From: Patescibacteria group bacterium
GTDB lineage: Bacteria > Patescibacteriota > Microgenomatia > UBA8517
Length of the DNA: 64,000 nucleotides
Assembly: GCA_035291665.1 (NCBI GenBank)
Contig: DATDRP010000001.1
Location: forward strand, 146,952 to 210,951
Direction: 5' to 3'
This document shows positions 21,798 through 59,772 of the stretch, in pieces. Numbering within the stretch: position 1 is the first letter of the stretch; every line of letters starts with the position of its first letter. The translations under genes were made by a program, and so were the position numbers. The notes beneath the pieces are model-generated. The model made no database searches. It saw nothing but the letters and a program-made list of their open reading frames with translations, and was not told the origin of the DNA.

Positions 21798-23708
21798 TCA
21801 AAGGCTCTTAAGTATTTTCTTTCTAATTTCTTCGATCTCTCCATCTTCCAACGTTTTATTTTCGTCAAGATAATAAATCTTAAGAGTAATATTGTCTTTG
21901 TATTTACCAACATATTCAATGCGGTTTACCCTTTTATCAGATTTTAGGATTTTTGCGACGATATCTTTATAAAGAAAACCAGCCTTTTGAGTTATTGTCA
22001 GATCTTCGATTTGGGGAGGGTGCTTGGAAATTGGATCAAAACTTATATAGTCCTTTTCCAAAGATAGAAGTTCGGGAACGTATAATTCAATAACAATTTT
22101 TCCATCATCCATAATTTCAAAATAGCCCAATATTGCTTTCCCGGCATTAATATTAAATATTTTATAGTTTGACTCCATTTCAATTTCAAATTCAATTTTC
22201 AGCTCTTTTGATAAAAATGTTTCAATGATCCCCTTAACGGAAGTGTACCTATAACCGTCAAAAACCATTCCTAAGGTTAGTTTTTCTTCAGGAAGTTCAT
22301 CTTTCTTTGGTATGTAGACATTTGATAGTTCATATAAAAATATATTATCGTATTGGCCTTTATTCGATTGAACCGCTTCAAGAAGTGAATTTTTCAAATT
22401 ATTACGTAAATATTTTGTATCTGATCCGAGCGGGTTTTTCAATTCCAAACTGCTTTTATTGTCAGTCAGTTTATCCGATACAAGAGATAACGTAAACATT
22501 TCGTTACCTCCTAATGCTTTTAAAATGTTTTTTATTTTCCATTCAAAAGGAAGACCCGATTTGAATAAAGGATCCGGAATCTTTCCTTCCATGAGATTGG
22601 AAGGCAAATTATGATAGCCGTAAATTCTGGCAACTTCTTCGACAATATCTTCAGGAATTTTTACATCGTTAAGCCTGAAAGAAGGAACGGTTACAGAAAG
22701 ACGATTCCCCTTCCACAAGCAACCGAAACCCAAACTGGTTAAATATTTGGTAATATCATCTTTTGCTATAGCAATGCCGAGTCTTTTATTTATGAATTCA
22801 TCAACTAAATCAATTTTAGTGACCTTTGGTTTTACTAAATATTCATCATAGATTTTACTGTCAACTTTAACTTTACAAATATTTTTATAAAGCTCAATTC
22901 CTCTTAACAACGCATCCTCGGAAAGCATCGGGTCAACTCCTTTTTCATTTATCATTGCCGCAACTGTACGTATTCCCAACGTCATTGATGTATTCCGGAT
23001 TCTGACCGGATCATTGTTATCGATAAAGAAAAAAATGCGTTTTGTGTTTCCGTCAACGACTGAATTTTTGGTACCGATAATTCCCGGTAAGTCAATAATT
23101 TCACCATCTCCGTCGTCAAAAACAATATCACCCCCCGGAAGGGAATAGGTTTTACCATCGAAACTGGTTACTTTTTCACCCTTAGACGATTCTCTTATGA
23201 CAAATTTTGCGTTTTTTATTTTATCGTAATCGAAAGCATGCGATGGTTGACCGAGTTCGAGCATAATATAGTTTGTAACGTCTACGAGTGCGTTCAGAGA
23301 CCTTAGACCGGACACTTCTAGACGTTTCTTCATCCATTCAGGAGTTTGGCGGTTTTTTATATCCGACAAAACTACTCCCATTGCCCGATAAACAAGTTTT
23401 TCTTTATTTATAATTGTGAACGGAAGCTTATTTCCGACCGTTTGAGGCTTTTTTGTGTTTTGCTTTTTCAGTTTTGCACTGATTCCGAAACGGGGTAGAA
23501 TAGCTGCGCATTCTCTGGCAAATCCATATATCCCCACCGTATCAATTCTATTTGTTGTAATTTCAACATGATATACAAAATCACTTCCGATTTTTTCTAC
23601 TTTTTCTATGGAAGGACCACACAATGAAATGTATTTTTCAATTTGCTTCGGTGTCGCCTTTGTAATAAGGAATTCCCTGAGCCAATTATCTGAGATTAAT
23701 ATATCCAT
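21798..23708 (-). CDS. pheT: phenylalanine--tRNA ligase beta subunit (short form)
   Basis: MDILISDNWLREF start typical of PheT; B3/4 and B5 regions; 636 aa, so lacks some accessory domains of the ~800-aa bacterial form. Confidence 0.9.
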   Translation of the reverse strand: MDILISDNWLREFLITKATPKQIEKYISLCGPSIEKVEKIGSDFVYHVEITTNRIDTVGIYGFARECAAILPRFGISAKLKKQNTKKPQTVGNKLPFTIINKEKLVYRAMGVVLSDIKNRQTPEWMKKRLEVSGLRSLNALVDVTNYIMLELGQPSHAFDYDKIKNAKFVIRESSKGEKVTSFDGKTYSLPGGDIVFDDGDGEIIDLPGIIGTKNSVVDGNTKRIFFFIDNNDPVRIRNTSMTLGIRTVAAMINEKGVDPMLSEDALLRGIELYKNICKVKVDSKIYDEYLVKPKVTKIDLVDEFINKRLGIAIAKDDITKYLTSLGFGCLWKGNRLSVTVPSFRLNDVKIPEDIVEEVARIYGYHNLPSNLMEGKIPDPLFKSGLPFEWKIKNILKALGGNEMFTLSLVSDKLTDNKSSLELKNPLGSDTKYLRNNLKNSLLEAVQSNKGQYDNIFLYELSNVYIPKKDELPEEKLTLGMVFDGYRYTSVKGIIETFLSKELKIEFEIEMESNYKIFNINAGKAILGYFEIMDDGKIVIELYVPELLSLEKDYISFDPISKHPPQIEDLTITQKAGFLYKDIVAKILKSDKRVNRIEYVGKYKDNITLKIYYLDENKTLEDGEIEEIRKKILKSL

Positions 23709-30332: not shown

Positions 30333-30505
30333 AATTGGAAAAGTATAGTGAAAAATTCGAATCAAAAAAAATGCCGAGCTAATCTCGGCTTGTTTTCTTA
30401 ACCTAAACGATATTTTACTCTTATTTAAGCTAATTAACAATTAAATTGGTTTTTCATAAACTCCTTTTACATATTTCACTTAATCTTGTAAAATATCACT
30501 CACTA

Positions 30506-30579
30506 GGACGGTTAGCTCAGTTGGCTAGAGCGTTTCTTTGACGTAGAAAAGGTCAGGGGTTCGAGTCCCTTACCGTCCA
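30506..30579 (+). tRNA. tRNA-Val (anticodon GAC)
   Basis: Cloverleaf folds: acceptor GGACGGT/ACCGTCC, anticodon loop TTGACGT, T-loop TTCGAGT. Confidence 0.85.
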
Positions 30580-30896: not shown

Positions 30897-30970
30897 GGGC
30901 CTGTAGCTCAATTGGCCAGAGCACTTGGCTGGCAGTCAAGGGGTTGGGGGTTCAAATCCCCCCGGGTCCA
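30897..30970 (+). tRNA. tRNA-Ala (anticodon GGC)
   Basis: Acceptor GGGCCTG/CGGGTCC with the G3:U70 alanine identity pair; anticodon loop CTGGCAG; T-arm GGGGG-TTCAAAT-CCCCC. Confidence 0.85.
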
Positions 30971-33810: not shown

Positions 33811-34001
33811 ATAACTAAAAAACCTCTCGGGTGAGAGGTTTGTTCTTTAAAAAAATGGTTTATAAAATATTTAATCCCTCACCATATTAACCCCTCCTCG
33901 AATGAGGAGGCTAATAATGCTGAGCAAAACTTGCTCAGTGGTGAGAAAAAGATTCTTCATATCTTAGCAAGTATTTTAAGCAAAATTTAGATTACTGTCA
34001 A
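33811..34001 (-). promoter_or_regulatory. promoter plus highly structured leader of the 409-aa gene
   Basis: Minus strand: TTGACA(34001..33996)-17-TAAAAT(33978..33973). Three-way structure CUCACC[CUGAGCAA-guu-UUGCUCAG][CCUCCUC-auuc-GAGGAGG]GGUGAG. Then AAACCUCUC-accc-GAGAGGUUU + U-tract ends 9 nt before the ATG and sequesters the only SD-like GAGAGG. Confidence 0.5.
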
Positions 34002-34016
34002 GAAAATGTTATAGGA

Positions 34017-35336
34017 TTATATTCTTTCTACGACAAGGAAACTGGTGTAATTTTCTTTGGCATCCTGAAGATTATCCTCAACAATTCTTAAATCATAAAT
34101 TTGAGCTAATATTTTACTTCCCATGACAGCTGTATTTTTCCCCAACGTCCTTTCTGATAGTCGTTTTGCCACAAGTGCATGGTCAACTAATTTTCCTTTT
34201 CCTGATATTCTTTTCAGATAAGGATATTTTTCATCTAATGTCCTTTGGCATTGCGCAAAAACCTGAGGATGAGACATGATTGAATCAACTTCTCCAAAAG
34301 TTGCGTCTGATCGAATCATTAGAGCATGAGATATTTTTATTGAAAATTGATCAGTTATATTAAATTTGTATTTTGACATTGCCTCAATACTTTCTCCCAC
34401 CACCCCGCCTAATGAATTATGTATAGCAAACTGACCAAGGTCTATGCTTCCTTCATGTAGTGCCTTGAGGACTGCACCGGATGTATAAAGGAATTTAATT
34501 TTATATTTTTTATCGGTTTCTCTCTCGAAATAATATTTGGCTGCTTCTTCATTAAAACTACCCCTACCTCCTTGTATACCATAAGTGACGAAGTTCTTAT
34601 TGACTGCTTTTGGAAGCAGTTTGTTATAAAGCGAATCATATTTTTCACCTATTTTTATGCGCATTTCTTTTGTATAGGAGTTGTAATTTTGTAAATTTAA
34701 AAATAATTGCATGGTGTCATTACATGTTTGATTTTTGACCTCAAGTAGTTTTTTGGTTCCAAGAGTGTCAATTTCAGAAGGTGATAAACCGAAAGAATCA
34801 AGTAGTCTTCCGATAAAATGTGTTAATCCCTGAGAATTTGCAGCTATTTTGTCGTGTTTTTGCGGAGACATCTCAATCACTTTAAGTCCCTTTTGGGTAA
34901 AGTAATTTTTCCAAAACTTGAAATTATTATTGTTAGATAAAAAACGATTTAAAACGATTGGCAGATTTGAAAATCCACCTTTACTGCTATCTGGACCAAA
35001 CATTGGATGTGTAAGGATTGCCTGTGTTTTTAATCCCTTCAAATGTTTTGTTAAAATTTTAGCCGGATGCATTTTTACAGACAGAACATCTATGAGCAAG
35101 TGATTATCTGAGAAGTATGATTTGTGGGCAGAAATAACATTCTCAAATTCATCTATAGGAACTGCAATAAATATTATTTCCGATTTATATACTTCTTTAA
35201 TATTTTCTGCAATCTTTAAACCATCCTTATGGGCAATCACTTTTTTGTCAAAGACAATTACATCAAAGTCAGATTTCAATAAACGATATAAAACCTGACC
35301 AAATCTTCCATAACCCACAATGCTTATTTTTTTCAT
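34017..35336 (-). CDS. bifunctional prephenate dehydrogenase / prephenate dehydratase (TyrA-PheA fusion, no ACT domain)
   Basis: N-terminal NAD-binding ISIVGYGRFGQ and HPMFGP (prephenate dehydrogenase). C-terminal PDT catalytic domain: TYGIQGGRGSFNEEAA, SHPQVFAQC, TSFLVV. Confidence 0.8.
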   Translation of the reverse strand: MKKISIVGYGRFGQVLYRLLKSDFDVIVFDKKVIAHKDGLKIAENIKEVYKSEIIFIAVPIDEFENVISAHKSYFSDNHLLIDVLSVKMHPAKILTKHLKGLKTQAILTHPMFGPDSSKGGFSNLPIVLNRFLSNNNNFKFWKNYFTQKGLKVIEMSPQKHDKIAANSQGLTHFIGRLLDSFGLSPSEIDTLGTKKLLEVKNQTCNDTMQLFLNLQNYNSYTKEMRIKIGEKYDSLYNKLLPKAVNKNFVTYGIQGGRGSFNEEAAKYYFERETDKKYKIKFLYTSGAVLKALHEGSIDLGQFAIHNSLGGVVGESIEAMSKYKFNITDQFSIKISHALMIRSDATFGEVDSIMSHPQVFAQCQRTLDEKYPYLKRISGKGKLVDHALVAKRLSERTLGKNTAVMGSKILAQIYDLRIVEDNLQDAKENYTSFLVVERI

Positions 35337-35626
35337 AAGTCATTAATTTCTTCTATTATCTGACTTTCAATTGTCAATGATTCCTCATGAAGTCTTTCGA
35401 AAATGTCCAAAATTAATTTCTCAGACAATCCCAATTTTCTACCAATTTCAATTCTATTTTTTATGACCTTATCCCATCTGTTTTGATCCAATGGTATTAT
35501 TTTATTCTCTTTTTTTAAAATCCCAACTTTTTTGACAAGCTCAATACGTTTCGAAATTATAGAAACTAAAGCCACGTCGTTTTCATCAATTTGAATCCGC
35601 AAATCATTTAATATTTCTCTTCCCAT
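35333..35626 (-). CDS. chorismate mutase (AroQ class)
   Basis: 97 aa; LRIQIDENDVALVSIISKRIELVKKVG...RWDKV: AroQ helical CM. Confidence 0.8.
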   Translation of the reverse strand: MGREILNDLRIQIDENDVALVSIISKRIELVKKVGILKKENKIIPLDQNRWDKVIKNRIEIGRKLGLSEKLILDIFERLHEESLTIESQIIEEINDL

Positions 35627-35629
35627 ATT

Positions 35630-36604
35630 TTAAGATAAATTTTTTTGCTCGACAAAATCGGGTGATCTTAAATTTCTGAATCTTGCCAAATCCTGAAGCA
35701 GGCACCTCAACTCGTCATGTGTTATATGTTGTTCGGAATCTGTGATAGATTCTCCGGCTTCGATTAAAAGTCCGTCATAAAGCCAATTATTACCATCTTT
35801 CATTCTCATTACTTTTATTGATTCATCAACGATTTTGTTTCTCATGTTTGGTCCACAGCTGTGGCTGGGGTCAAAAAATAATCGAGCTCCGATTACAGAT
35901 CTTTTTGTATGTCTGGCAATTTCATGGACAGGTGCACTTCGCCATTCACCTTTATCTGGTGAATCGATACCTCTGTGGATAAATATCAATCTTTCATTAT
36001 TTTGCGCAAAACTTGCCTGTCCGCTCCATTGTCTTTGAAGTGCGCTTCCACTATATTTTACAGGATCATTCGACATATCAAGAGAAATATCAAGGTTTTT
36101 AGCGTTTTTCACTCCCTGAAACCAGATGTTTCTCCTTGCATATTCTCCCATCGTAAGTTGAGCATATCCAAGACCCTCAACCGAAGGCTGCCAGATTAAG
36201 AGTTTTTCTGGTTGGATTCTTCCCTCATATTGTGGCAATTGAACACTCGGCATCATTATCTCAGTTGCAATTAGAAGTCCTGTTTCTTTGACTATTTTTA
36301 TTCCTGCCTCAACGCTCGGCGGTGGTGCAGTGGGAAGCGGGTTTTTAAGGACAATGATATTTTCTTTACATTCAAAATAATAATTAAAATCTGCCCCCAT
36401 CGGACTTTTTCCATCTAAATTAGTTCGGGATTTAAGTCCAACTACTCGTGTACCCCACAAACATGTTTGGATTTGACCTTTTATATTTCTAACCTTAATT
36501 TCCGAAAGATCATAGTATCCGGATAGATTTCTCACGAGTTCCAAATCTACCGAACATGGACCGGCTATAACTTCTGTGTCAAATTGATTTAATGATTCTG
36601 ACAT
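35630..36604 (-). CDS. 3-deoxy-7-phosphoheptulonate (DAHP) synthase, class I-beta (KDO8PS-like)
   Basis: VIAGPCSVD and FDPSHS motifs of the I-beta DAHPS/KDO8PS family; first gene of the aromatic operon. Confidence 0.8.
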   Translation of the reverse strand: MSESLNQFDTEVIAGPCSVDLELVRNLSGYYDLSEIKVRNIKGQIQTCLWGTRVVGLKSRTNLDGKSPMGADFNYYFECKENIIVLKNPLPTAPPPSVEAGIKIVKETGLLIATEIMMPSVQLPQYEGRIQPEKLLIWQPSVEGLGYAQLTMGEYARRNIWFQGVKNAKNLDISLDMSNDPVKYSGSALQRQWSGQASFAQNNERLIFIHRGIDSPDKGEWRSAPVHEIARHTKRSVIGARLFFDPSHSCGPNMRNKIVDESIKVMRMKDGNNWLYDGLLIEAGESITDSEQHITHDELRCLLQDLARFRNLRSPDFVEQKNLS

Positions 36605-36615
36605 ATTTATACATT

Positions 36616-36639
36616 AAAAAACCCCGACTATGCGGGGTT
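36616..36639 (-). terminator. attenuator terminator 2
   Basis: AACCCCG-CATAGT-CGGGGTT + T6; its 5' arm CCCCGCAT is also complementary to upstream ATGCGGGG (36670..36663). Confidence 0.7.
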
Positions 36640-36669
36640 GGTATTTTTACATAGAGAATTTTCCCCGCA

Positions 36670-36726
36670 TTAGTTAGGATAAAAATAATAAAAACTAAAC
36701 AGATTGTTTTTGTAAATATTGTTCAT
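36670..36726 (-). CDS. leader peptide 2 (MNNIYKNNLFSFYYFYPN)
   Basis: 18 codons, 7 Phe/Tyr; SD AGGAGGG 13 nt upstream; stop TAA overlaps the 5' strand of the antiterminator (TAATGCGGGG). Confidence 0.6.
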   Translation of the reverse strand: MNNIYKNNLFSFYYFYPN

Positions 36727-36840
36727 ACTTCAATAGCACCCTCCTAATTTTCACACTTGGCTTTTTGGGAACTATTCGTTCACGCCTCGTGCCAAAATTG
36801 GTCGGAGGGTTATGTACTATTTGAAAATTACAAAGTACAT

Positions 36841-36867
36841 AAAAAAACCTCCTAACTCTAGGAGGTT
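36841..36867 (-). terminator. attenuator terminator 1
   Basis: AACCTCCTA-GAGT-TAGGAGGTT followed by T7 (read on the minus strand). Confidence 0.7.
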
Positions 36868-36920
36868 GATTTTCTGGGATTTATTTAATTAAACCAAATA
36901 AACTCGCCCCCTAGGGTTTC

Positions 36921-36965
36921 TTAGGAGGTAAAGTAAAAATAAAATTTTACCGAATTTATTTTCAT
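36921..36965 (-). CDS. leader peptide 1 (MKINSVKFYFYFTS)
   Basis: 14 codons with FYFYF run; stop UAA lies inside segment 1 (ACCUCCUAAG); starts ~10 nt after the -10 box (leaderless-like). Confidence 0.5.
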   Translation of the reverse strand: MKINSVKFYFYFTS

Positions 36966-37029
36966 ATTAGAGGTTATTATAGATATTTATAAAACTATTG
37001 TCAATAATTCAAAAGCTATTCAAAATATA

Positions 37030-37674
37030 CTATCCTGCTGATCTTGTTACGTAATGTTCGCCGGAAAGCAAAAACTTTGCTCCGTGTTTTTTGTATGAGC
37101 TCCAATAATTTTTCTTTTGTGCCCTTTTATTAACTGAAAAGAGCCAATTGGTGGACTCCTGAATGTTCTTTCTGAATGAAATGATAAAACTCAAAAGTTT
37201 TTCAAAAAATACAACGTGATAAATTCCAGGTTCAATTGGTGCTTGCATCGATGCAATTTCAACTTGGGTACCGAGACCTGATGTGGTTTTTGCCAATAAT
37301 ATTACCTCATCAGTAATTGCTTTCAGCTGCATTCGAAGTTCGTTTGTCTTTTTTTGAATCATCAATGATTCTTCCTGATGAAGTCGTCTTTCAAAAGTTA
37401 TTTGTTTTTGTAATTTATCTCTTTCTTCTTTTTGGGCTTTGGCAATGGGATTGAACTCCAATGATTCACCCGGATGCAGTTCGCCGGAATAATTTGGTGC
37501 ACTTTGCGGACCGAATAATTGATCCATAAAATCACCCGGCATCTTGTCAAAAAGGTCTTGTTTGATCGATTTTGCTGTTGATGTGCCCACGTCTTTTAGG
37601 GATTCCAAAACATTCGGTTGATTTTGACTTTTTTGGCCTTTCCCCGATTTGCTCTTAGGATTGTTGTTAGGCAT
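37030..37674 (-). CDS. hypothetical protein with coiled-coil
   Basis: 214 aa; Lys/Gln-rich N-terminus, central coiled coil; no recognised motif. Confidence 0.5.
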   Translation of the reverse strand: MPNNNPKSKSGKGQKSQNQPNVLESLKDVGTSTAKSIKQDLFDKMPGDFMDQLFGPQSAPNYSGELHPGESLEFNPIAKAQKEERDKLQKQITFERRLHQEESLMIQKKTNELRMQLKAITDEVILLAKTTSGLGTQVEIASMQAPIEPGIYHVVFFEKLLSFIISFRKNIQESTNWLFSVNKRAQKKNYWSSYKKHGAKFLLSGEHYVTRSAG

Positions 37675-37754
37675 ATAATTATCCTATAATAACTTCAACG
37701 GTGATGATATTCTACCAAAAAATTATATATTTTACAACCGGACCTAAGTACAAA

Positions 37755-38666
37755 TTATACTAATGAAGTCAGGAAATCAAGCGCTTTTCTTCTTTGCAGT
37801 ATGACTCTGATCACAGATCTTTGTTCGGGAGTTTCTCCACTATTTTTCAGATTGGGGTCTGAATGGCTTGCCTTGATTGCCTCGTCTATGTCTTTATCAT
37901 CAACATTTAATGATTCATTTTTAGCTATTTTTTCCAGTATAAGTTCGAGTCTTATAGCTTTCTCGGATTGATCTTTATAATCACTTCGTATTGATTGTGC
38001 GGTTTTTCCGATTGAATTGAGGTATGAATCTAGTGTTAGACCCAATTTTTCGGTCTGTTCAAGAAGCTTTGATAATCTTGTGTTTACTTCTTCATCAATA
38101 AGAACGGTTGGGACAATAAAATTTATTGTTTTAAGTAAAATATTTATAACTTTTTGTTCTTTTTCCTGACGGGAAAGCCCTTTATCGTCAACGTCCTTAT
38201 TTTTTCCGGGAGTCCATATTTTACCTGAAGCGAGTTCGGTTTTAATGGGATCCTTATAGTTCCCCAATTCAAATTCCGTTATTTGACAAGTTGTCGCACG
38301 GATTTGCCACGTTTCATTTTGTTGTGCGTTAATGAGTTCGAATTTAGGAAAAACAGCCGGTCGGATTTTTTCTGACATAATGACTTCGTTAAACATTTGA
38401 GGCAATAGTCCCGAAAGCGTCTGTTGAATTAATTTATCCCTGGATACCGCCGATTCAATTTTATCAAGCGGGGCTTTTCCTTTTCTGAATCCGGCGATTT
38501 CAAGATCTTTACCCAATTCATGAAGAGCTTTTGTTTTATTTTCTTCAACCGTCTTCCAGGGTATATTGAATGTAATTTGAATCGTTCCGTCATCCTGTTT
38601 GGCTACAATCGGTTTAAAATCCTGATTTACGGACTTTTTCTGATTTTTTATGTTTGTTTTTGCCAT
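37755..38666 (-). CDS. tig: trigger factor (short form)
   Basis: Ribosome-binding signature GFRKGKAP in the N-domain; 303 aa, shorter than canonical ~430 aa. Confidence 0.75.
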   Translation of the reverse strand: MAKTNIKNQKKSVNQDFKPIVAKQDDGTIQITFNIPWKTVEENKTKALHELGKDLEIAGFRKGKAPLDKIESAVSRDKLIQQTLSGLLPQMFNEVIMSEKIRPAVFPKFELINAQQNETWQIRATTCQITEFELGNYKDPIKTELASGKIWTPGKNKDVDDKGLSRQEKEQKVINILLKTINFIVPTVLIDEEVNTRLSKLLEQTEKLGLTLDSYLNSIGKTAQSIRSDYKDQSEKAIRLELILEKIAKNESLNVDDKDIDEAIKASHSDPNLKNSGETPEQRSVIRVILQRRKALDFLTSLV

Positions 38667-49360: not shown

Positions 49361-49445
49361 TGCCGAGAGAGGGAGTTGAACCCACACGTCTTATAAAGAC
49401 ACAGGATCCTAAATCCTGCGCGTCTGCCAATTCCGCCATCCCGGC
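49361..49445 (-). tRNA. tRNA-Leu (anticodon TAG), type II
   Basis: Reverse complement folds: acceptor GCCGGGA/TCTCGGC, anticodon stem-loop CAGGA-TTTAGGA-TCCTG, long variable arm, T-loop TTCAACT. Confidence 0.8.
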
Positions 49446-49611
49446 TTATACAACTTCACTATTATATCAATACTAAAGTTTTTCCCAAAAAAAAGAGGCG
49501 CACCTTGGGGTACACCTCATAAAAAAATCCTAACGCCCATCTAATCTATAGGATTAGTAAGCCTCAGAATCTAGAGATACTATAACATAAGACTATAAGT
49601 ATGTCAATATA

Positions 49612-50364
49612 TTACTTCTTGCTTGCTAATATGAATAATGAAGGACCAAATCTTGTTTTAGAAAACATCCTTTGTAGATATTTTTCAAGATACAATAAAA
49701 TCTCAACGGGAAGTAGTTTTTTAAGAATTACGCTTCGTATATTGGACACGGATTTGATGTCAATTATGCGGAAACCGTTATTTTCCAAATGATTAAGGAC
49801 ATCATCCGGATGATAATTAAAAAAATCTATACAACCTGTATTAATAGATTTTTTACTCCGAATGTCTTTTGGAAATATATCAAGTAAAAAAGTCAAATTC
49901 CCATGACGCAATTCATTAAGAGCAGATTTAAAATGAAGTTTATTGGGAAATTCGAGAATCAGATGTCCATTATTTTTTAAAAGCCTGTTGATGATCCTGA
50001 ACGCATTGTCGAGATTTTTGACGTGATGCAACACTCGGATAAATAGAACCAGATCAACACTTGATGGCTTTATTTTTGTTTCTAAATTTTCTATTTTTGA
50101 ATGGATAAATTTAATTTTTTTGTTTTTGTATTTTTCTTTTGCTATGGAGAGTAATTTTGAAGAAGGGTCCGTGAGGTAAATTCGTTTGGCTCGGTGGATG
50201 TATGTGGGAATCAAACGCCCATACCCCGCGCCGATATCGGCAATGGTTCCGATAATTTTTAGTCTTTTGAAAAAATTTTCAAGTACAAAAACTTCTGACT
50301 TGTGTTCGTAGATTCTGGACTCCCAATATGATGGATAATCGAAATTATCGTAATGAGCAGACAT
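49612..50364 (-). CDS. class I SAM-dependent methyltransferase
   Basis: IADIGAGYGRLIPTY...RIYLTDPS; DLVLFIRVLHHV. Confidence 0.8.
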   Translation of the reverse strand: MSAHYDNFDYPSYWESRIYEHKSEVFVLENFFKRLKIIGTIADIGAGYGRLIPTYIHRAKRIYLTDPSSKLLSIAKEKYKNKKIKFIHSKIENLETKIKPSSVDLVLFIRVLHHVKNLDNAFRIINRLLKNNGHLILEFPNKLHFKSALNELRHGNLTFLLDIFPKDIRSKKSINTGCIDFFNYHPDDVLNHLENNGFRIIDIKSVSNIRSVILKKLLPVEILLYLEKYLQRMFSKTRFGPSLFILASKK

Positions 50365-50449
50365 ATTATGTGTATTGTAAGGATATATGATTGATGCAAA
50401 TTATGTCAAAAGTAATCATAGATAAGAAATATATTTGTGGCTGGAATTG

Positions 50450-51076
50450 CTATTCCATTTCAGACATGAAGCTTGAGACGCCCTCCGCCCAGCTCCCATT
50501 TGACAGAGGCGTATATTTTGTCATTATTTCTTCGGGTGTTGTGTAGCCTTCGTCCAAGTAATCATCCCGAATCCCCTTTGTTACAGTATTTATTCCTTCT
50601 TCAAATGAGGAAAAGCCGAGTGTTCCTCGACTGTGGATTCCCCACCCCCAGCAGTTGAATGTTCCTTCCGGATAGGCTTTACAAAGATTTGATTCCTGCT
50701 GGGCAATGGCAGTAACCAGTCTGAAATCTACATCGTATTTATCTGCCGTATTTACAATATAAAAAGAATACGGTTCCAGAATTGAATCATATCTTTGAAG
50801 ATATGATTTAACTATCTCCCCTCTTGCATCCGATTCTACCGGATAGCCATTTATGGTTTGTGCTGATGGAGGAAGTGAAGAAAAAATACGAATATTTTGT
50901 GAATTATCACCCAGTACAGAAGGTTTTTTTTCACTCGAAATGTTTAAAAGGGCGTATAAAGATAAAGCAATAACTACTGGTGTTATGAGAAAAAACATTG
51001 AAGCTGTTATAAGACTATTGATATAAGATAATCCCCTGAGGTGCTTAAAATTAAATATAGGCATTTCAAATATCAT
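50450..51076 (-). CDS. membrane-anchored lytic transglycosylase-like peptidoglycan hydrolase
   Basis: N-terminal TM; LVTAIAQQESNLCKAYPEGTFNCWGWGIHS resembles the SLT-domain catalytic ES motif. Confidence 0.5.
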   Translation of the reverse strand: MIFEMPIFNFKHLRGLSYINSLITASMFFLITPVVIALSLYALLNISSEKKPSVLGDNSQNIRIFSSLPPSAQTINGYPVESDARGEIVKSYLQRYDSILEPYSFYIVNTADKYDVDFRLVTAIAQQESNLCKAYPEGTFNCWGWGIHSRGTLGFSSFEEGINTVTKGIRDDYLDEGYTTPEEIMTKYTPLSNGSWAEGVSSFMSEME

Positions 51077-51301
51077 ATCAAAAATAAATAATTATTAATA
51101 ACGATAATGAAGTGTTGGAGGTTTTCAATTGTTGATATACCGGAAGGAATCGGTGATTTGATGTAAAGAAAATCAGCTTATTACCGAAGCAATCTTCTTT
51201 ATTAAAATATTAAATTATATGTGAGCTTGGAAGGATTCGACCAAGTACAACTTGGGTTCATTCCTGAAATCGCTTCCTGAATTCAATTTTGATTTTTGAG
51301 G

Positions 51302-51373
51302 TGATCCCGGAAGGAATCGAACCTTCGACCATCTCCTTAAGAGGGAGTTGCTCTACCGCTGAGCTACGGGACC
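51302..51373 (-). tRNA. tRNA-Lys (anticodon CTT)
   Basis: Reverse complement: GGTCCCG-TA-GCTC...CTCTTAA anticodon loop...GAAGG-TTCGATT-CCTTC-CGGGATC-A. Confidence 0.75.
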
Positions 51374-51386
51374 ATACTCCTCAGTA

Positions 51387-52640
51387 TTATAATTTCCGAA
51401 ACATTAAAATGCCAATATGACCGGGATCGATCCTCGTAAAGAGCGGGTATCCGATTTCGGCATCGATATCATAGCCTTCTATCTTTACAATATACAGATT
51501 ATCCATTTCCCAAATCATCTGACCGGTATTTTTCAGAATCGAAAGTTGGTAAGTCTTATCGTCTTTTTGAATCAAGTCGGGAGTAAGCTCGGCCACCATA
51601 GTTGCAGAGTTAATTCTTTTGGGATTACCGGATTTTTTTAGCATTTTTTGAATTTCCGAGTAAAAATCATAAAAGCTTCCATCAGCCTTTTTGAATGAGA
51701 AAGTATTGAAAGGTTCACTCTGATAATTCAACATGAATGGGGTTACCGCCACTATATTTGGATCTTTTAACCATTTTTCAAATGCCTGTGTATAGTATTT
51801 TTTCAAAACATCAACAGACAAAAATTTATTTTCACCCCCCACATCGTGCGTCCAGCCTGTTTCGGTTATAAATATGGGTAAATTCTTTTTAACGCTCAAG
51901 GTTTTTATAAATTCAATTTCGTTAATATAACCCGTAATACTAACAATCCCCGTTTTATCGGGGCTTTCGGAAAAATTCGGATTTGGATATGAGTGTGAAG
52001 TCCACCCGTCGATATGGTCAAAAATATCAGGAACTTTATCGTGCATTGACTTAATAAAATTTGTTTCGCTCATATGCGTTTTGTTGTTGGGAGAAGATGC
52101 ATCTAATCCTGCTGGAAGAACAAAAAAATCATCATCTTTTCTTTTAAGTTGTATTGAAAATTCTTTTAAGAATTCAGCATAACCTTGAGGATCAATTACA
52201 CCTCCCCATTCAGCTGCATGATTCGGTTCATTACCAACCACAACATACCTATTTTGAGTGACCCAATTAAGAGAGTCCAGGAAATTTACCCAGCCATCAA
52301 TATCGTCAGTTGTCGGTTTCAACCAGCCTGAACCCTCTTGTTTCGTAGCTATTCTTATAATCGGAATAAGATGAAGTTCCCGCATCCGGTCAAAAACATT
52401 CTGCCACCTGTTTACATCCCTCTCATCTGATCTTAGTACCATAGTCACATACCCCCATTCGCCACCGGAAGAATTCACCAACTTTGCAGCATCGATTAGA
52501 TCGTTTTCATCCTGAATATGGATACCGAAAATGTTATTTTCCGTCGAATGCGGATTAGTTACAGCAAAAGTTGATTTATATGATTTAAAAAATATTAGAG
52601 CAGCTGCAATTAATATTATTAATTTGTAAAATTTTTTCAT
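51387..52640 (-). CDS. secreted glycoside hydrolase (GH5/GH53-like TIM barrel)
   Basis: Signal peptide MKKFYKLIILIAAALIFF; catalytic-like motifs VVGNEPN (acid/base) and ITETGW (nucleophile). The track's 110-codon N-extension to 52970 is antisense to the tRNA-Leu genes and was trimmed. Confidence 0.65.
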   Translation of the reverse strand: MKKFYKLIILIAAALIFFKSYKSTFAVTNPHSTENNIFGIHIQDENDLIDAAKLVNSSGGEWGYVTMVLRSDERDVNRWQNVFDRMRELHLIPIIRIATKQEGSGWLKPTTDDIDGWVNFLDSLNWVTQNRYVVVGNEPNHAAEWGGVIDPQGYAEFLKEFSIQLKRKDDDFFVLPAGLDASSPNNKTHMSETNFIKSMHDKVPDIFDHIDGWTSHSYPNPNFSESPDKTGIVSITGYINEIEFIKTLSVKKNLPIFITETGWTHDVGGENKFLSVDVLKKYYTQAFEKWLKDPNIVAVTPFMLNYQSEPFNTFSFKKADGSFYDFYSEIQKMLKKSGNPKRINSATMVAELTPDLIQKDDKTYQLSILKNTGQMIWEMDNLYIVKIEGYDIDAEIGYPLFTRIDPGHIGILMFRKL

Positions 52641-52745
52641 ATTAACCATTATACAAAATCCAAAAGATATAAGGGCGTTATGTAATAAATTCCAACTGTA
52701 TTTGGTATAATACAGGTGAAGTTTTGCCCTTGTGGCGGAATTGGC

Positions 52746-52830
52746 AGACGCGCAGCGTTCAGAACGCTGTCTCGATTTCCGAGGTAGGGGTTCAAATCCT
52801 CTCAAGGGCACTCGATAAACTCGTGCTCCT
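52746..52830 (+). tRNA. tRNA-Leu (anticodon CAG), type II
   Basis: GCCCTTG...CAGCG-TTCAGAA-CGCTG...long variable arm...TTCAAAT...CAAGGGC-A. Confidence 0.85.
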
Positions 52831-52903
52831 GTTCGGGTTTGATAGTGCGAATTAAGGTAGATATTATGCACACAAATCCTCTCAAGGGCACCGTTATTTA
52901 TAC

Positions 52904-52985
52904 GCGCGGGTGGCGAAATTGGTAGACGCGCAGTCTTGAGGAGGCTGTGGAGTAATCCTTGCAGGTTCAAGTCCTGTCCCGCGCA
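52904..52985 (+). tRNA. tRNA-Leu (anticodon GAG), type II
   Basis: GCGCGGG...CAGTC-TTGAGGA-GGCTG...TTCAAGT...CCCGCGC-A. Confidence 0.85.
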
Positions 52986-53155
52986 CTAATACAAAATGAC
53001 GAAAACTTTCGTTGTTTTGTTTTAACGGATAGGAATTGAACCGAAGGTCATGGGTGAGCGAAAGCGAATCCCTGGATACCCTTGTGGTATTCAAGTCCTG
53101 TCCCGCGCACTAAATCGGTCGCTTGGCTCAGTTGGTCAGAGCATCTCGTTTATAA

Positions 53156-53229
53156 GGATCTATAGCTCAGTTGGTCAGAGCGTTCGGTTTACATCCGAAA
53201 GGTCGTAGGTTCGAACCCTACTAGATCCA
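53156..53229 (+). tRNA. tRNA-Val (anticodon TAC)
   Basis: GGATCTA-TA-GCTC-AGTTGGTCA-GAGC-G-TTCGG-TTTACAT-CCGAA...GTAGG-TTCGAAC-CCTAC-TAGATCC-A. Confidence 0.85.
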
Positions 53230-53372
53230 CATTATTATAGAAAGTCGGGGGAAATGACACCGAGTCTGACTCGGACGAATCCCTCAGCGACTACAAATAT
53301 GATAGAATTTGAAAGAAAATAGCCGAGGTACCCAAGTTTGTTATAAATGTTAAGAATTGGAGGTGACATAAA

Positions 53373-53585
53373 ATGGCAATACCAGAAAACAAGAGCAAAA
53401 TATTAAAAGTTAAGTATATTAGTTTCAGTATACTGCCAGGTCAAGAAATTAAAAGTTTTGAAGAACTTTCAAAATCTGAGCCAGGTACAAGCGTAATAGT
53501 TGAAGGTGGCGGAGATTTGGACTACCTATCTTCAGATTTACAGAATGTTAAAAAAACAAGTGAGGATGATACATCTCAGGGTTAA
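53373..53585 (+). CDS. hypothetical small acidic protein (70 aa) inside a duplicated tRNA-Phe 5' segment
   Basis: Strong SD GGAGGTGA 7 nt upstream; MAIPENKSKILKVKYISFSILPGQEIKSFEELSKSEPGTSVIVEGGGDLDYLSSDLQNVKKTSEDDTSQG; flanked by a tRNA-Phe 5' fragment (53322-53338) and intact tRNA-Phe. Confidence 0.5.
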   Translation: MAIPENKSKILKVKYISFSILPGQEIKSFEELSKSEPGTSVIVEGGGDLDYLSSDLQNVKKTSEDDTSQG

Positions 53586-53594
53586 ATATTATAA

Positions 53595-53667
53595 GCCGAG
53601 GTAGCCAAGTTGGTCACGGCGGGCGCCTGAAGAGCGTCAGATTCGGGTTCGATTCCTGACCTCGGCA
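53595..53667 (+). tRNA. tRNA-Phe (anticodon GAA)
   Basis: GCCGAGG...GGCGC-CTGAAGA-GCGTC...TCGGG-TTCGATT-CCTGA-CCTCGGC-A. Confidence 0.8.
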
Positions 53668-53674
53668 CATTTAC

Positions 53675-53746
<72 letters not shown>

Positions 53747-53751
53747 CAAAA

Positions 53752-54819
53752 TTAATTTATTTTTGTCTCTTCACCTTCGCTAGGAGTTATCGGCAGCCTT
53801 TCTTTACCTACTGCATCACGCATTGTATTAAGCAGCAGCCTTTTCAGAATTTCACTAAATTTGACTCCATACATATCAAGAATTGTTGAAATAGCTACAG
53901 CTGCCTCTTTTGGTGCAAATGCGGGATTACAATTTGAATCGATAAAAAAATATCTCCCCGACTGATCCAACCTGACATCAAATTTTCCGTAATCGTACAT
54001 TTTATTAACATCAAATGCTTTTTTTACATACTCTTTTAATATCGGATCTTCATACTTTTGATAATAGAATGCATCGTAAGATTTACTCATCCATTGGTCC
54101 TCAAATGTAGAAAATATATATTTTTCGTTTTCTTTATTGAATATTTTTTCTGCAAGATAAACTTTTTTGTTAAGTCCTTCAAGAAGCATGCATGTGATTT
54201 CCCTTCCCACAATAAACTCCTCAACGATAACGGATTGTTTGTATGTTGATATCAAAAACTTCAGTCTTTCTCTTAAGTGCTTTTCATTTTCCGATACAGC
54301 ATCTTGTGTAATTTCTACTCCTCCGTGAATTTCATTAAGTTTTGATATCAAAGGAAAACGAAGTGTTGGATCTTTCAAATCATTTGAAGTATTAAACAAT
54401 TGGAAGTTTGGAATAGGGACTCCGTTTTGCTGAAGAAGTTTTTTTATTAAAAATTTATTTGACGTTAAAGAAAGTCCCAGTATATCCCCGCCGGTATAAG
54501 GAATATCAAGAATTTCCAAAACTCCAGGAATTGATGAAGCAAGACTTTCAATTCCTTTAACTGAATCTACAAGATTGATTACCATATTAGGTTTATCTTT
54601 GCGAAGATGAGAGGAAAGATCCGAATTGCCGGGATATAATTTGACTTCAATAAAAAGTTTCTTTAAGTAGTCTGCAACCATTCTTGCATCATCTTCCGCA
54701 TCTTTTTCAGTAATATACTGTTCTTCCGTCGGGAAATATTCTCTTTTTACATCACTAAAAACTATCCCTACCTTTTTAGGTAATTCATAAGTTGAGGACA
54801 ACCCATTTTCTTGAACCAT
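53752..54819 (-). CDS. ATP-grasp enzyme, D-Ala--D-Ala ligase family-like
   Basis: 355 aa; N-domain VGIVFSD...; central ATP-grasp region EEFIVGREITCMLLEG; C-terminal FIDSNCNPAF resembles the Ddl (E/D)xN metal-binding loop. Confidence 0.6.
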   Translation of the reverse strand: MVQENGLSSTYELPKKVGIVFSDVKREYFPTEEQYITEKDAEDDARMVADYLKKLFIEVKLYPGNSDLSSHLRKDKPNMVINLVDSVKGIESLASSIPGVLEILDIPYTGGDILGLSLTSNKFLIKKLLQQNGVPIPNFQLFNTSNDLKDPTLRFPLISKLNEIHGGVEITQDAVSENEKHLRERLKFLISTYKQSVIVEEFIVGREITCMLLEGLNKKVYLAEKIFNKENEKYIFSTFEDQWMSKSYDAFYYQKYEDPILKEYVKKAFDVNKMYDYGKFDVRLDQSGRYFFIDSNCNPAFAPKEAAVAISTILDMYGVKFSEILKRLLLNTMRDAVGKERLPITPSEGEETKIN

Positions 54820-54942
54820 TATAATTTCTTAAACATTACTAAATTATTAGATTATTTGGTAAAATACAATAGCTAGATTATAAAACAAGAAGTGTATTTT
54901 AAGTTAGTAAACAAAAAATACAATAGTTAAATCTTTTCAATT

Positions 54943-55018
54943 GGCCCAGTAGCTCAATGGACAGAGCAGTTCCCTTCTAAGGAAAAGGTTGGTGGTTCAA
55001 CTCCACCCTGGGTCACCA
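54943..55018 (+). tRNA. tRNA-Arg (anticodon TCT), CCA encoded
   Basis: GGCCCAG-TA-GCTC-AATGGAC-AGAGC...GTTCC-CTTCTAA-GGAAA...GGTGG-TTCAACT-CCACC-CTGGGTC-A-CCA. Confidence 0.8.
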
Positions 55019-55125
55019 AGACTGATCGGTTCTTCAGAGGAAAATCAAAAAACATGTTCAACGTATCTAAGCCATTTTCAATTATATTTTGAAGACTAAT
55101 TTTTAAGGATTTGGATAATGTTATT

Positions 55126-58267: not shown

Positions 58268-58437
58268 GAAGACAACAGTAGGTTTTATTGTCAGCGTACT
58301 TATCCATTATACGCTTTTGGATCAAATTAGACTGAAATTAGTGTTTCAAAACCGATGTAATTAATAGAATAATTTACCTGCTGTAACATTATTCTTAAAT
58401 GTTTTTTGGAAATAACGATAGTTACAAATTAGTCAGA

Positions 58438-59580: not shown

Positions 59581-59682
59581 ATTGAGTATAATTAGCGGAT
59601 AAGGAAAGTATTTATCTGATTTTAAGGATATTTAGCCACTGTGATGAAATGGATATCACATCGGTCAGATAATCAAAATATA

Positions 59683-59712: not shown

Positions 59713-59772
59713 TTGGCCAAACTACGTTTGGTAGATCATCTGTCTTAGACATTGATGATGACAAGAAAATTA

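Follow-up and report, generated by a model that had tools for sequence, protein, structure and literature searches.

The 425-nt gap that lies 5' of a divergent DAHP synthase (DAHPS) gene on the minus strand of the DNA analysed here, a 64-kb stretch, hereinafter called the window, from the metagenome-assembled genome of an uncultured member of the Patescibacteria, consists of a promoter, two Phe/Tyr leader ORFs and two terminators (Table 1). Domain matches confirm the originally predicted order of the downstream genes, namely, DAHPS, chorismate mutase and a TyrA-PheA fusion, and the products of this operon, Phe and Tyr, are the very amino acids that are encoded in the codon runs of the two leaders, as had been proposed from the composition of the leader peptides. 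The first of these genes is the least typical one: the protein encoded in the window has no match in Pfam at the default cut-off, and its identity is derived from homologues that carry PF00793, from weak matches in NCBIfam (NF006421, E 7.5e-4) and the PDB (DAHPS chains, E 2.6e-5), and from the operon context, the homologues in relatives adjoining shikimate-pathway genes. An ACT domain was looked for in the prephenate dehydrogenase-dehydratase fusion and was not detected. The interval 36616-36604, between the end of the second terminator and the DAHPS start codon, is too short to house a separate promoter for this gene.

Table 1. Coordinates of the promoter, leader elements and operon genes in the window
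Feature	Coordinates	Strand	Remarks
-35 hexamer, TTGACA	36999..37004	-	12/12 sigma-70 match together with TATAAT, 17-nt spacer
-10 hexamer, TATAAT	36976..36981	-	10 nt 5' of ORF1 AUG
Leader ORF1, MKINSVKFYFYFTS (then stop)	36921..36965	-	FYFYF; F/Y codon run 36944-36930
Outer stem, 5' strand (AAAAUAAAUUCG region)	36951..36961	-	pairs with 36906-36896 in MFE folds
Segment 1, ACCUCCUAAG	36920..36929	-	spans ORF1 stop and last two sense codons
Segment 2 (CCCUAGGGGG, 36916-36907) and outer-stem 3' strand (36906-36896)	36896..36916	-	
Terminator 1 (segments 3 and 4), AACCUCCUA-GAGU-UAGGAGGUU (36867-36846), then U7	36841..36867	-	hairpin -12.0 kcal/mol
Mini-ORF1b, MYFVIFK (then stop)	36817..36840	-	Shine-Dalgarno is AGGAGG of terminator-1 segment 4, 7 nt upstream
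H1-H2 two-hairpin insert (95-nt)	36738..36840	-	predicted fold; between modules
Putative Shine-Dalgarno of ORF2, AGGAGGG	36739..36745	-	12 nt from AUG, paired within H2
Leader ORF2, MNNIYKNNLFSFYYFYPN (then stop)	36670..36726	-	F-S-F-Y-Y-F-Y; F/Y codon run 36699-36679
Module 2 anti-terminator 5' arm, ACUA.AUGCGGGG	36663..36674	-	overlaps ORF2 stop codon
Terminator 2, AACCCCG-CAUAGU-CGGGGUU and U-run (36639-36620 plus U6)	36616..36639	-	-10.0 kcal/mol
DAHPS ATG	36604	-	
Divergent DAHP synthase (type I-beta-like), first regulated gene	35630..36604	-	homologues with PF00793, weak NCBIfam/PDB matches, context
Chorismate mutase (CM_2)	35333..35626	-	domain match, E 1.9e-17
Prephenate dehydrogenase-prephenate dehydratase fusion (PDH_N and PDT)	34017..35336	-	domain matches

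The promoter is exactly the perfect consensus that the original prediction had claimed, and a 12/12 match occurs nowhere else within 35500-38000. No Shine-Dalgarno sequence was found between the -10 box and the AUG of ORF1, so the ORF1 mRNA would be leaderless or nearly so. From the promoter spacing only, we infer leaderless-type initiation at ORF1, the distance from the -10 box making a 5' UTR of 2-4 nt likely, rather than a truly leaderless start. Equivalent promoters are present upstream of 36 of the 46 leaders in relatives, where the -10 box and the AUG are 5-11 nt, most often 7 nt, apart, and this spacing indicates that the leader ORFs there are apparently leaderless as well.

Alternative structures and the predicted switch

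In module 1, the outer stem encloses both the F/Y codons and the 1:2 hairpin, and the region of segment 2 has two pairing options, that is, either segment 1 together with the 5' outer strand, or segment 3. The 1:2 pairing joins CCUCCUA (36928-36922) with UAGGGGG (36913-36907), and the competing 2:3 duplex has a computed energy of -14.2 kcal/mol. Module 2 lacks segment 1 and therefore departs from the trp-type scheme. Here, AUGCGGGG (36670-36663) is exactly complementary to CCCCGCAU (36637-36630), the anti-terminator duplex formed with 36637-36627 has an energy of -16.4 kcal/mol, and the stem of terminator 2 ends 15 nt before the DAHPS start codon. The ORFs, segments, stop-codon overlap and terminators of both modules lie precisely where they had been predicted. 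The claim that ORF2 possesses its own Shine-Dalgarno sequence holds in part: the AGGAGGG motif is present but is suboptimal, given its distance from the AUG and its location in the 3' strand of a stable hairpin.

That hairpin belongs to the H1-H2 insert, which separates the two modules. H1 occupies 36840-36812, and in H2, ACCCUCC (36810-36804) pairs with GGAGGGU (36744-36738) and thus sequesters the Shine-Dalgarno of ORF2. With its ribosome-binding site placed and paired in this way in the predicted fold, ORF2 may be translated inefficiently, and module 2 would then read through most of the time. No Rfam match was found for H1-H2, and the possibility that it is a repeated or mobile element was rejected after BLAST searches of the window and the related loci, with the insert as the query, had yielded no second copy. 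No covariance model was built for the insert because its alignment was too irregular for a reliable one. The insert also accommodates mini-ORF1b, which sits where leader ORF2 begins in the related locus L001; in another relative, L081, a mini-ORF at the equivalent place overlaps the AUG of leader 2 as AUGA. Since mini-ORF1b has a perfect Shine-Dalgarno and stops just short of the 5' strand of H2, a ribosome translating it could open H2 and, conceivably, mini-ORF1b serves as a relay toward ORF2.

Aromatic runs of this kind are hardly expected by chance. Among 5000 dinucleotide shuffles of the 425-nt gap, 1.2% contained at least one ORF with at least 5 aromatic residues in a 6-residue window, and 0.02% contained at least two. 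On both strands of the window, there are only about 9 other such F/Y-run ORFs, and most of those that were checked are intragenic; one of them, at 23568-23627 (MIYKITSDFFYFFYGRTTQ), lies within a gene on the opposite strand and was counted as background. The leader RNA also folds more stably than its shuffled versions (z-scores: module 1, -3.5; remainder, -3.7; entire leader, -5.7).

The MFE folds, along with folds in which a ribosome was masked, reproduce the mutually exclusive structures, and the masked folds bear out the trp-type 1:2/2:3/3:4 logic that had been proposed for module 1. In these models, which employ an assumed ribosome footprint and nascent transcripts truncated before segment 4, both modules switch as expected: the anti-terminator is favoured when the ribosome is stalled on the regulatory codons, and the terminator is favoured when it has reached the stop codon. 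Equilibrium folding of the full-length RNA with a masked ribosome was set aside as uninformative for a kinetic switch because it mostly yields the terminator even so. When loop costs are counted, neither anti-terminator exceeds the respective terminator hairpin in stability, so read-through would rely on kinetics, as in the E. coli trp leader.

Taken together, the sequence, the modelling and the comparison with relatives that is described below make it probable (at roughly 85%, in our estimate) that two serial ribosome-mediated attenuators respond to how much charged tRNA-Phe and tRNA-Tyr is available and, in this way, govern the transcription of the DAHPS, chorismate mutase and TyrA-PheA genes. 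Under this mechanism, transcription would start at the AUG of ORF1 or a few nucleotides before it, and a ribosome would load on the leaderless-type 5' end. In module 1, segment 2 would be held by segment 1 and the outer stem when no ribosome is present, and would be covered when a ribosome sits at the stop codon; segment 3 would then be free to form the 3:4 terminator, and transcription would end at 36841, which is the predicted default of this module. A ribosome stalled on the UUU/UAU/UAC run would instead open the outer stem and cover segment 1, so that segment 2 would pair with segment 3 and RNA polymerase would read through. Module 2 is a three-segment version of this design that would read through by default, its anti-terminator forming unless a ribosome at the ORF2 stop codon covers the 5' arm. 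Termination in module 2 would thus occur only when a ribosome reaches that stop codon, and a stall on the F/Y codons would again give read-through. Two such filters in series would multiply the read-through probabilities, resulting, presumably, in a lower basal expression and a sharper response. Furthermore, because ORF1 has no Shine-Dalgarno, transcripts entering from the upstream gene would go untranslated, and terminator 1 would, by implication, double as the terminator of that gene.

The leader family in related genomes

The comparison included 80 species-level genomes that carry this DAHPS, mostly Patescibacteria along with two Elusimicrobia. We employed two covariance models, R1 and R2, which were built from the relatives only, with the window left out, and which span the AUG, outer stem, F/Y run, 1:2 hairpin and terminator. 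R1 detected a matching leader upstream of the operon in 62 of the 80 genomes (73 matches, nearly all on the same strand as the gene and upstream of it), and, according to an ORF scan, 41 of the 80 loci have ORFs with F/Y(/W) runs 5' of the DAHPS operon. Of 151 such ORFs in 1.26 Mb, 46 lie on the same strand within at most 600 nt upstream, a zone that accounts for 3.8% of the sequence. The best two matches of both models in the window are module 1 (36965-36841; 46.0 bits, E 7e-7, with R1 and 61.1 bits, E 7e-8, with R2) and module 2 (36726-36616; 31.8 bits with R1 and 38.5 bits, E 6e-4, with R2). The match of module 2 is weak, given that a generic 'AUG + AT-rich + terminator' match upstream of typA comes close, with 29.6 and 33 bits, respectively, so the case for module 2 needs more than the model. 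That third match (30366-30472) has no F/Y codons and was rejected as generic. A separate, third leader-type element is located at 33811-34001 of the window.

Terminators are present in 45 of the 46 leaders examined, and tandem leader pairs occur also in L001, L081, L005, L024 and L059. Homologues of ORF2 are recognizable in L001 (…VFNFYYFNPS) and L081 (MNINQKSNNFYYFNPI). The operons that follow the leaders in relatives include shikimate-pathway, chorismate mutase, prephenate dehydrogenase, prephenate dehydratase and aminotransferase genes; in one case (L082), the leader is followed by DAHPS-pheS-pheT. The leader in another locus (L021) is of an Ile/Thr type.

Comparative alignment shows that the leader ORFs and their F/Y runs are conserved and that the outer stem, the 1:2 hairpin, the terminator and the anti-terminator all contain compensatory changes, as the original prediction would have it. 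RNAalifold, when applied to a MAFFT alignment of 36 leaders, returned no structure, because the helices occur in different registers in different leaders; it was replaced by a hand-given structure on a 16-sequence alignment, alignments based on the covariance models, and energy tests on individual sequences. In the structure alignment, which was itself fitted to the structure tested, 82% of the cells are paired, compared to 46-53% upon sliding of the partner, and each of the 20 pairs varies at both positions. There are 237 compensatory cells compared to 85 in shuffles, and none of the 500 shuffles reaches the observed value, with the same proviso that the alignment was fitted to the tested structure. 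For the anti-terminator columns, the paired fraction is 66.7%, against 45-54% upon sliding. The energy tests point in the same direction: segment 2 forms, on average, a duplex of -18.8 kcal/mol with its own terminator and of -14.2 kcal/mol with foreign ones, and the fit to the own terminator is in the best quartile in 33 of 45 leaders. In the window, the rank of the own terminator is 0.05 for module 1 and 0.00 for module 2, which means that the latter fits better than all 44 foreign terminators. At the level of individual helices, the outer stem AUUCG/CGAGU of the window corresponds to ACCCG/CGGGU in L001, and the arms of segments 2 and 3 change in a compensatory manner from CUAGGGGG/CCUCCUAG in the window to UAAGGGGG/CCUCCUUA in L001 and are complementary in L081 as well.

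Competing explanations

Could module 1 be the sole working attenuator, with module 2 a duplicate in decay or an element that reads through constitutively? The decay would be attributed to the insertion of H1-H2, which separated ORF2 from its ancestral start site and buried the Shine-Dalgarno: in L001, the AUG of ORF2 immediately follows terminator 1, with AGGAGG of segment 4 serving as the Shine-Dalgarno, and it is at this place that the window has the 95-nt insertion, leaving ORF2 with the distant, stem-bound motif described above. An untranslated module 2 folds into the anti-terminator, and its modest covariance-model score fits with decay, too. However, the F/Y run, stop codon, anti-terminator and terminator of module 2 are all intact, these parts are conserved with matching changes in the arms in L001 and L081, and the order leader, H1-H2, leader recurs in the distant L005; moreover, access to ORF2 could be restored through mini-ORF1b in the manner suggested above. 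We consider this explanation improbable, and two functional attenuators remain the preferred reading.

Far less probable still is control of the terminators by a riboswitch ligand, by uncharged tRNA in a T-box-like fashion or by an RNA-binding protein, with the F/Y ORFs being incidental U-rich sequence. U-rich tracts are, indeed, common in a genome with 35% GC, and H1-H2, an unexplained structure sited between the modules, is kept in shape among those relatives that have it; against this, it is missing from L001 and most of the other family members. No T-box or riboswitch family gives a match up to E = 10 in 36300-37300, or at the gathering score in 16 related loci, and the U/A/C pattern preserves the F/Y/W reading frame, which in 36 of the 46 leaders is in frame with an AUG at the start point of the promoter, with the leader stop codon placed at segment 1 or 2. 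The least likely explanation, to which we assign hardly any weight, is that the short ORFs are genes in their own right, for small proteins or small RNAs, each with its terminator, and have no part in regulating the operon. A promoter, an ORF and a terminator do make up a complete small transcription unit, and in other bacteria, attenuator RNAs and leader peptides can act in trans (PMC7298713). Yet conservation of the peptides is limited to the F/Y run, the other residues tracking the RNA pairing (e.g., T-A-S-G-G, from ACCGCC…GGCGG), and the element nearly always immediately precedes, in the same orientation, aromatic operons that lack any other promoter.

Known attenuators and the place of the Phe/Tyr leaders

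None of the Rfam families is matched at the gathering score in the window or in the 16 related loci. Under the criterion of Rfam, the window falls outside Phe_leader (RF01859), for which modules 1 and 2 score 31.7 and 17.4 bits, respectively, compared to the gathering score of 55. T-box, riboswitch, PyrR, L10 and other Rfam families were discarded, having yielded only sub-threshold matches that were mostly driven by the terminators. A literature search for leader peptides in Patescibacteria or the candidate phyla radiation (CPR) found no paper. The suggestion that the arrangement is undescribed therefore stands with regard to Rfam and the CPR but not with regard to the principle, which has a precedent in the aroR leader of Corynebacterium glutamicum (PMC11802643, PMC4046766). 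The Phe/Tyr leader family is, accordingly, an uncatalogued one that is widespread in the CPR, and is a new instance of a known attenuator type.

The closest precedent, by analogy, is aroR, a leader peptide with a Phe-Tyr-Phe sequence that attenuates the DAHP-synthase (aroF) operon (PMC11802643; PMC4046766; PMC3890552). As described there, aroR resembles the window leaders in being a mixed Phe/Tyr leader, in having the DAHPS gene first in the operon, and in that ribosome stalling increases read-through. The two systems, compared by description rather than by sequence, come from different phyla and involve different DAHPS families; aroR has 3 aromatic codons, compared to runs of 5 to 7 in the window, only Phe limitation is effective in C. 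glutamicum, and the window, unlike aroR, has two attenuators in series. The attenuators of pheL-pheA and pheST in E. coli, which precede genes for Phe biosynthesis and Phe-tRNA synthetase, respectively, share with the window a leader ORF with a Phe run, the 1:2/2:3/3:4 helices and an intrinsic terminator, whereas the mixed Phe/Tyr(/Trp) codons, the leader ORF devoid of a Shine-Dalgarno and the outer stem around the regulatory codons set the window apart from the E. coli Phe_leader. The aroR leader upstream of aroF was reportedly described by Neshat et al. in 2014. In the masked folds, module 1 follows the logic of E. coli trpL, with termination when the leader is untranslated or the ribosome is at the stop codon and the 2:3 anti-terminator upon a stall; the differences from trpL are that other amino acids would be sensed, that module 2 is without segment 1, and that segments 1/3 and 2/4 in the window are near-repeats of each other. 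With respect to the predicted 5' end, a parallel is provided by the leaderless polycysteine short ORFs of mycobacteria, which are Cys-responsive attenuators (bioRxiv 10.1101/834739) and, as ORF1 probably is, are regulatory short ORFs at or near the transcript 5' end that lack a Shine-Dalgarno; they act on operonic expression and are not described as terminator/anti-terminator switches of the present kind.

Organisms of the CPR are, by most accounts, poor in biosynthetic pathways and in known regulators. If the proposed mechanism is correct, the leaders would be the first documented family of amino-acid-sensing cis-regulators in this radiation, would imply tight transcription-translation coupling and, probably, efficient leaderless initiation in CPR bacteria, and would flag the lineages that retain a regulated shikimate and Phe/Tyr pathway; the covariance model could be used to annotate aromatic regulons in thousands of uncultured genomes. 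A broader reading, under which leaderless leader-peptide attenuation is a general, ancestral form of amino-acid control in Patescibacteria and the conserved H1-H2, which comes after the terminators of some leaders, is a new cis-acting RNA, draws on the breadth of the aromatic family, on the Ile/Thr leader of L021 and on the third leader-type element of the window, and appears to us unlikely. Were it true, H1-H2 would couple or gate the next step, perhaps, by exposing the Shine-Dalgarno of ORF2 once mini-ORF1b has been translated or through an effect on RNA polymerase.

Tandem arrangement of regulatory leaders is not without parallel, given that tandem riboswitches and T-boxes exist. Two serial attenuators of the same specificity would, in addition, make for a natural test of whether such an arrangement sharpens the response. 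The tandem attenuators of the Salmonella mgtCBR operon (PMC3641672) likewise place two termination checkpoints in a single 5' leader, with the distinction that the mgtCBR ORFs sense different signals, whereas both ORFs in the window carry Phe/Tyr codons.

Leader elements and the genes downstream

The RNA leader that precedes the divergent DAHP synthase (DAHPS) gene very probably (at a rough probability of 0.85) operates by classical leader-peptide attenuation, a reading already put forward in the original prediction and supported here by related leaders, by covariation and by folding with a masked ribosome. Reading of the minus strand over 37300-36400, combined with consensus scans, located every sequence element listed in that prediction, within a gap of 425 nt between the stop codon of the upstream DUF5660 gene (37030) and the DAHPS AUG (36604). 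The promoter is the sole 12/12 match to consensus within 35500-38000. A chance origin of the leader is excluded on several counts: among 5000 dinucleotide shuffles of the gap, 1.2% contained at least one ORF in which 5 or more of 6 consecutive residues are aromatic and 0.02% contained two, with about 9 other such ORFs on both strands of the 64-kb window; and the leader RNA folds more stably than its shuffled versions (z = -3.5 for module 1, -3.7 for the rest and -5.7 for the whole).

Features of the leader, its operon and similar elements (coordinates without a locus prefix refer to the window)
Feature	Position	Strand	Basis or detail
-35 TTGACA	37004-36999	minus	sequence reading, consensus scan
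-10 TATAAT	36981-36976	minus	17 nt from -35
ORF1, MKINSVKFYFYFTS	AUG 36965, stop 36921	minus	sequence reading
7-bp hairpin CCUCCUA/UAGGGGG	36928-36907	minus	sequence reading; ORF1 stop codon inside
Terminator 1, AACCUCCUA-GAGU-UAGGAGGUU + U7	36867-36846	minus	consensus scan
Hairpin H1	36840-36812	minus	fold
Mini-ORF MYFVIFK, 7 codons	36840-36817	minus	opens at AUG equivalent to ORF2 start of L001
ORF2, MNNIYKNNLFSFYYFYPN	36726-36670	minus	sequence reading
AUGCGGGG	36670-36663	minus	overlaps ORF2 stop codon; exact complement of CCCCGCAU
CCCCGCAU	36637-36630	minus	sequence reading; 5' arm + loop of terminator 2
Terminator 2 + U-run	36639-36620	minus	stem ends 15 nt 5' of AUG 36604
Divergent DAHP synthase	35630-36604	minus	homologues, weak model/structure matches, operon context
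Chorismate mutase (CM_2)	35333-35626	minus	Pfam
PDH_N + PDT fusion (TyrA-PheA)	34017-35336	minus	Pfam
Third-leader promoter	TTGACA 34001-33996, TAAAAT 33978-33973	minus	17-nt spacing
Third-leader ORF, 29 codons, MKNLFLTTEQVLLSIISLLIRGGVNMVRD	33960-33871	minus	
Third-leader terminator AACCUCUC-ACCC-GAGAGGUU + U6	33840-33821	minus	
typA-upstream element: SD, 7-codon ORF (MKNQFNC), terminator GCCGAG-AUUA-CUCGGC + U8	30366-30472	minus	R1/R2 match
H1-H2, window	36738-36840		
H1-H2, related loci	L005:3718-3812; L009:3802-3899; L036:3874-3977; L042:3299-3404; L046:3859-3950; L077:1898-1990; L078:3785-3867; L007:1007-1098; L021:1713-1800		

The first gene of the operon has no Pfam match at the default cut-off. 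Its product, recorded in identical form from a 'Patescibacteria group bacterium' MAG, is one of a large family in which most members carry PF00793, and weakly matches DAHPS NCBIfam models and solved type I-beta DAHP synthases; downstream of the gene, some relatives have dehydroquinate synthase, EPSP synthase/shikimate kinase and shikimate dehydrogenase, and others chorismate mutase (CM), PDH, PDT and an aminotransferase, so we consider the product a divergent DAHP synthase. In the PDH-PDT fusion of the window, the C-terminal part of which is the PDT domain, no ACT regulatory domain was detected, whereas the separate PDT of one related locus (L030) has one. Given this lack and the divergence of the DAHPS beyond the reach of Pfam, feedback control of the pathway may rest largely on attenuation.

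A family of Phe/Tyr leaders in relatives

With a single genome scanned for each species, 80 loci with this DAHPS were obtained, mostly from Patescibacteria and two from Elusimicrobia. Every locus with a gap ahead of the gene has, 50-250 nt upstream, a short ORF on the same strand that contains a Phe/Tyr (in some cases also Trp) codon run (for example, MVQKASHNSFYFYFYFTASGGVGSCA, MNNLLPKHSLFYFFYYPSGGRYPQ and, in Elusimicrobium, MNKLHSPKFYFYFNFYF…); if one or more other genes come before DAHPS, in many loci a PfkB-family kinase, the leader is found 5' of these. Of all such ORFs in 1.26 Mb, 46 of 151 fall inside the 3.8% of sequence that lies at most 600 nt upstream on the same strand. Downstream of the codon run lie segment 1 (ACCGCC or ACCUCC) and then segment 2 (GGCGG or GGGGG), which are repeated as the 5' and 3' arms of the terminator, respectively, and codons ahead of the run pair with codons past segment 2 in an outer stem common to the family (CUUCCCAC/GUGGGAAG in L030; CAGAGUG/CACUCUG in L064).

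A covariance model of 16 leaders built without the window (R1) produced 73 matches in 62 of the 80 loci, nearly all 5' of the gene and on its strand; within the window, module 1 ranked first (46.0 bits, E 7e-7), followed by module 2 (31.8 bits, E 6e-4). An iterated model from 60 hits that excluded the window and the relatives L001 and L081 (R2) gave 61.1 and 38.5 bits, respectively. The element upstream of typA scored 29.6 and 33 bits with these models, yet contains no Phe/Tyr codons; because such a generic match reaches 33 bits, the models support module 1 strongly and module 2 weakly. The true start of typA/bipA is likely 30332, not the TTG at 30440. The two closest relatives each have a homologue of ORF2 (L001, …VFNFYYFNPS; L081, MNINQKSNNFYYFNPI), with the terminator of the second leader complementary to its own anti-terminator arm, and tandem leaders also occur in L005, L024 and L059.

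In a model-based alignment of 72 distinct leaders, itself fitted to the structure, the termination state was 82% paired compared to 46-53% with a slid partner, both sides changed in 20 of 20 pairs, and 237 compensatory cells were observed against 85 in shuffles, none of 500 of which reached 237. When the post-run segment of each leader was set against the 5' terminator arms of all leaders, the anti-terminator duplex averaged -18.8 kcal/mol with the leader's own arm versus -14.2 with foreign ones, and the own terminator was in the best quartile for 33 of 45 leaders (rank 0.05 for module 1 and 0.00 for module 2 of the window); fixed-column counts were 66.7-79.9% paired versus 42-61% slid. Between the window and L001, covariation is seen in segments 2/3 (CUAGGGGG/CCUCCUAG to UAAGGGGG/CCUCCUUA) and in the outer stem (AUUCG/CGAGU to ACCCG/CGGGU). 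The R1 matches and the compensatory changes thus bear out the conservation of leader ORFs and paired segments.

Predicted switching and initiation

Nascent transcripts cut before segment 4 were folded with a ribosome mask of 29 nt. Folded without a ribosome, module 1 adopted both the outer stem and the 1:2 hairpin in the model and left segment 3 unpaired, free for termination; an A site placed anywhere within F8-F12 gave the 2:3 anti-terminator instead (-17.0 kcal/mol), so that a stall there would let the polymerase read through, and with the A site at the stop codon the ribosome would cover segment 2, again with termination. In module 2, the modelled anti-terminator was present without a ribosome or with a stall at F10-Y14, weaker with the A site at Y16 and lost at the stop codon, and this module is therefore predicted to be a three-segment switch that terminates only once ORF2 has been translated to its end. 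The mutually exclusive structures of the original prediction were reproduced for both modules in these folds; the trp-type 1:2/2:3/3:4 logic that it gave for module 1 appears to apply to that module, with module 2 behaving as the three-segment switch. We are less confident that module 2 is fully active than in the assignment to the attenuator class.

Beyond what the original prediction describes, ORF1 of the window lacks a Shine-Dalgarno sequence (SD), with 10 nt between the -10 box and its AUG, and the leader carries a two-hairpin insertion. Among 46 related leaders, 36 have a promoter matching at least 9/12 positions that ends 5-11 nt (mode 7) ahead of the leader AUG, and none of these promoter-bearing leaders has an SD; hence, judging from sequence, the leader ORFs look leaderless or near-leaderless and, in this respect, resemble the leaderless Cys-sensing short ORFs described in mycobacteria (10.1101/834739).

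Compared with L001, the window contains a 95-nt insertion that consists of two hairpins, H1 and H2. ORF2 of L001 starts right after terminator 1, its SD being the AGGAGG of segment 4; in the window, the fold places the SD of ORF2 inside the closing stem of H2 (ACCCUCC/GGAGGGU), and the mini-ORF stops just short of the H2 5' strand. A mini-ORF in the equivalent position of L081 overlaps the AUG of leader 2 as AUGA; conceivably, translation is relayed from the mini-ORF to leader 2. Elements of equal shape and position, starting immediately past the U-tract of leader terminators, are found in about a dozen loci, with the rough consensus U7-AUGG…CCGU-UUCC…GGA-UU-ACGG…CCAU-UAUCC…CCGAAG…ACGAAGG…GGAU. 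H1 bears a bulge of 2 nt, and H2 has an internal loop rich in purines; the shape is conserved, and the sequence is variable with partial conservation. H1-H2 has no match in Rfam, and a search of the insert against the window and the loci revealed no repeat copy.

Precedents and other leader-type elements

In the parts of the literature consulted, the closest functional precedent is aroR of C. glutamicum, a Phe-Tyr-Phe leader 5' of aroF (DAHPS) (PMC11802643, PMC4046766). The closest catalogued RNA family, Phe_leader (RF01859), scores 31.7 bits in the window, below its threshold of 55; neither the window nor 16 related loci gave an Rfam match that attained its threshold, and we found no literature on leader peptides in the candidate phyla radiation (CPR). 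To that extent the system is undescribed, as originally proposed, although it has the aroR-aroF precedent and a classical mechanism. The family stands out by its mixed Phe/Tyr, sometimes Trp, codons, by its apparent leaderless-type initiation, by the outer stem around the regulatory codons and, in several lineages, by the presence of two attenuators of like specificity in series. It is near-universal 5' of the DAHPS operon across an understudied superphylum.

In a small sample, leaders in L036, L045, L048, L054, L063 and L075 were compared with those in L001, L002, L005, L006, L024, L026 and the window. Trp codons (e.g. YFWFYF) are present in roughly half of the leaders before operons with only common shikimate-pathway genes, versus none of those of DAHPS-CM-aminotransferase-PDH/PDT operons, the type of the window, so that the make-up of a leader seems to follow the end products served by its operon. 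At L082:1-2511, pheS and pheT lie downstream of a DAHPS of 49% identity, which is preceded by a leader ending in …FTS*, whose segments ACCUCCUAA/CUAGGGGG/AACCUCC…GGGAGGUU are those of module 1 of the window; by analogy, this would link the family to control of Phe-tRNA synthetase, reminiscent of E. coli pheST. R1 also matched an Ile/Thr-rich leader ORF (MLTERISNIITTTIITAQCVVRW) at L021:1598-1719, followed by a terminator and H1-H2 and located 5' of a kinase-like gene and a PLP-dependent (PALP) enzyme, which points to a putative Thr/Ile attenuator of like build in Patescibacteria. A third candidate attenuator in the window (33811-34001, minus strand) lies directly past the stop codon of TyrA-PheA and shows an outer stem CUCACCAC/GGUGAGGG, the 3' strand of which also complements the terminator 5' arm, a fold z of -6.2 and an R2 score of only 21 bits. 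The 409-aa ORF downstream has no family match, and the residue sensed is possibly Leu or Ile. Of the 15 tRNA genes of the window, 13 lie within a 12-kb stretch (49361-61839), and the remaining two occupy 30506-30579 and 30897-30970.
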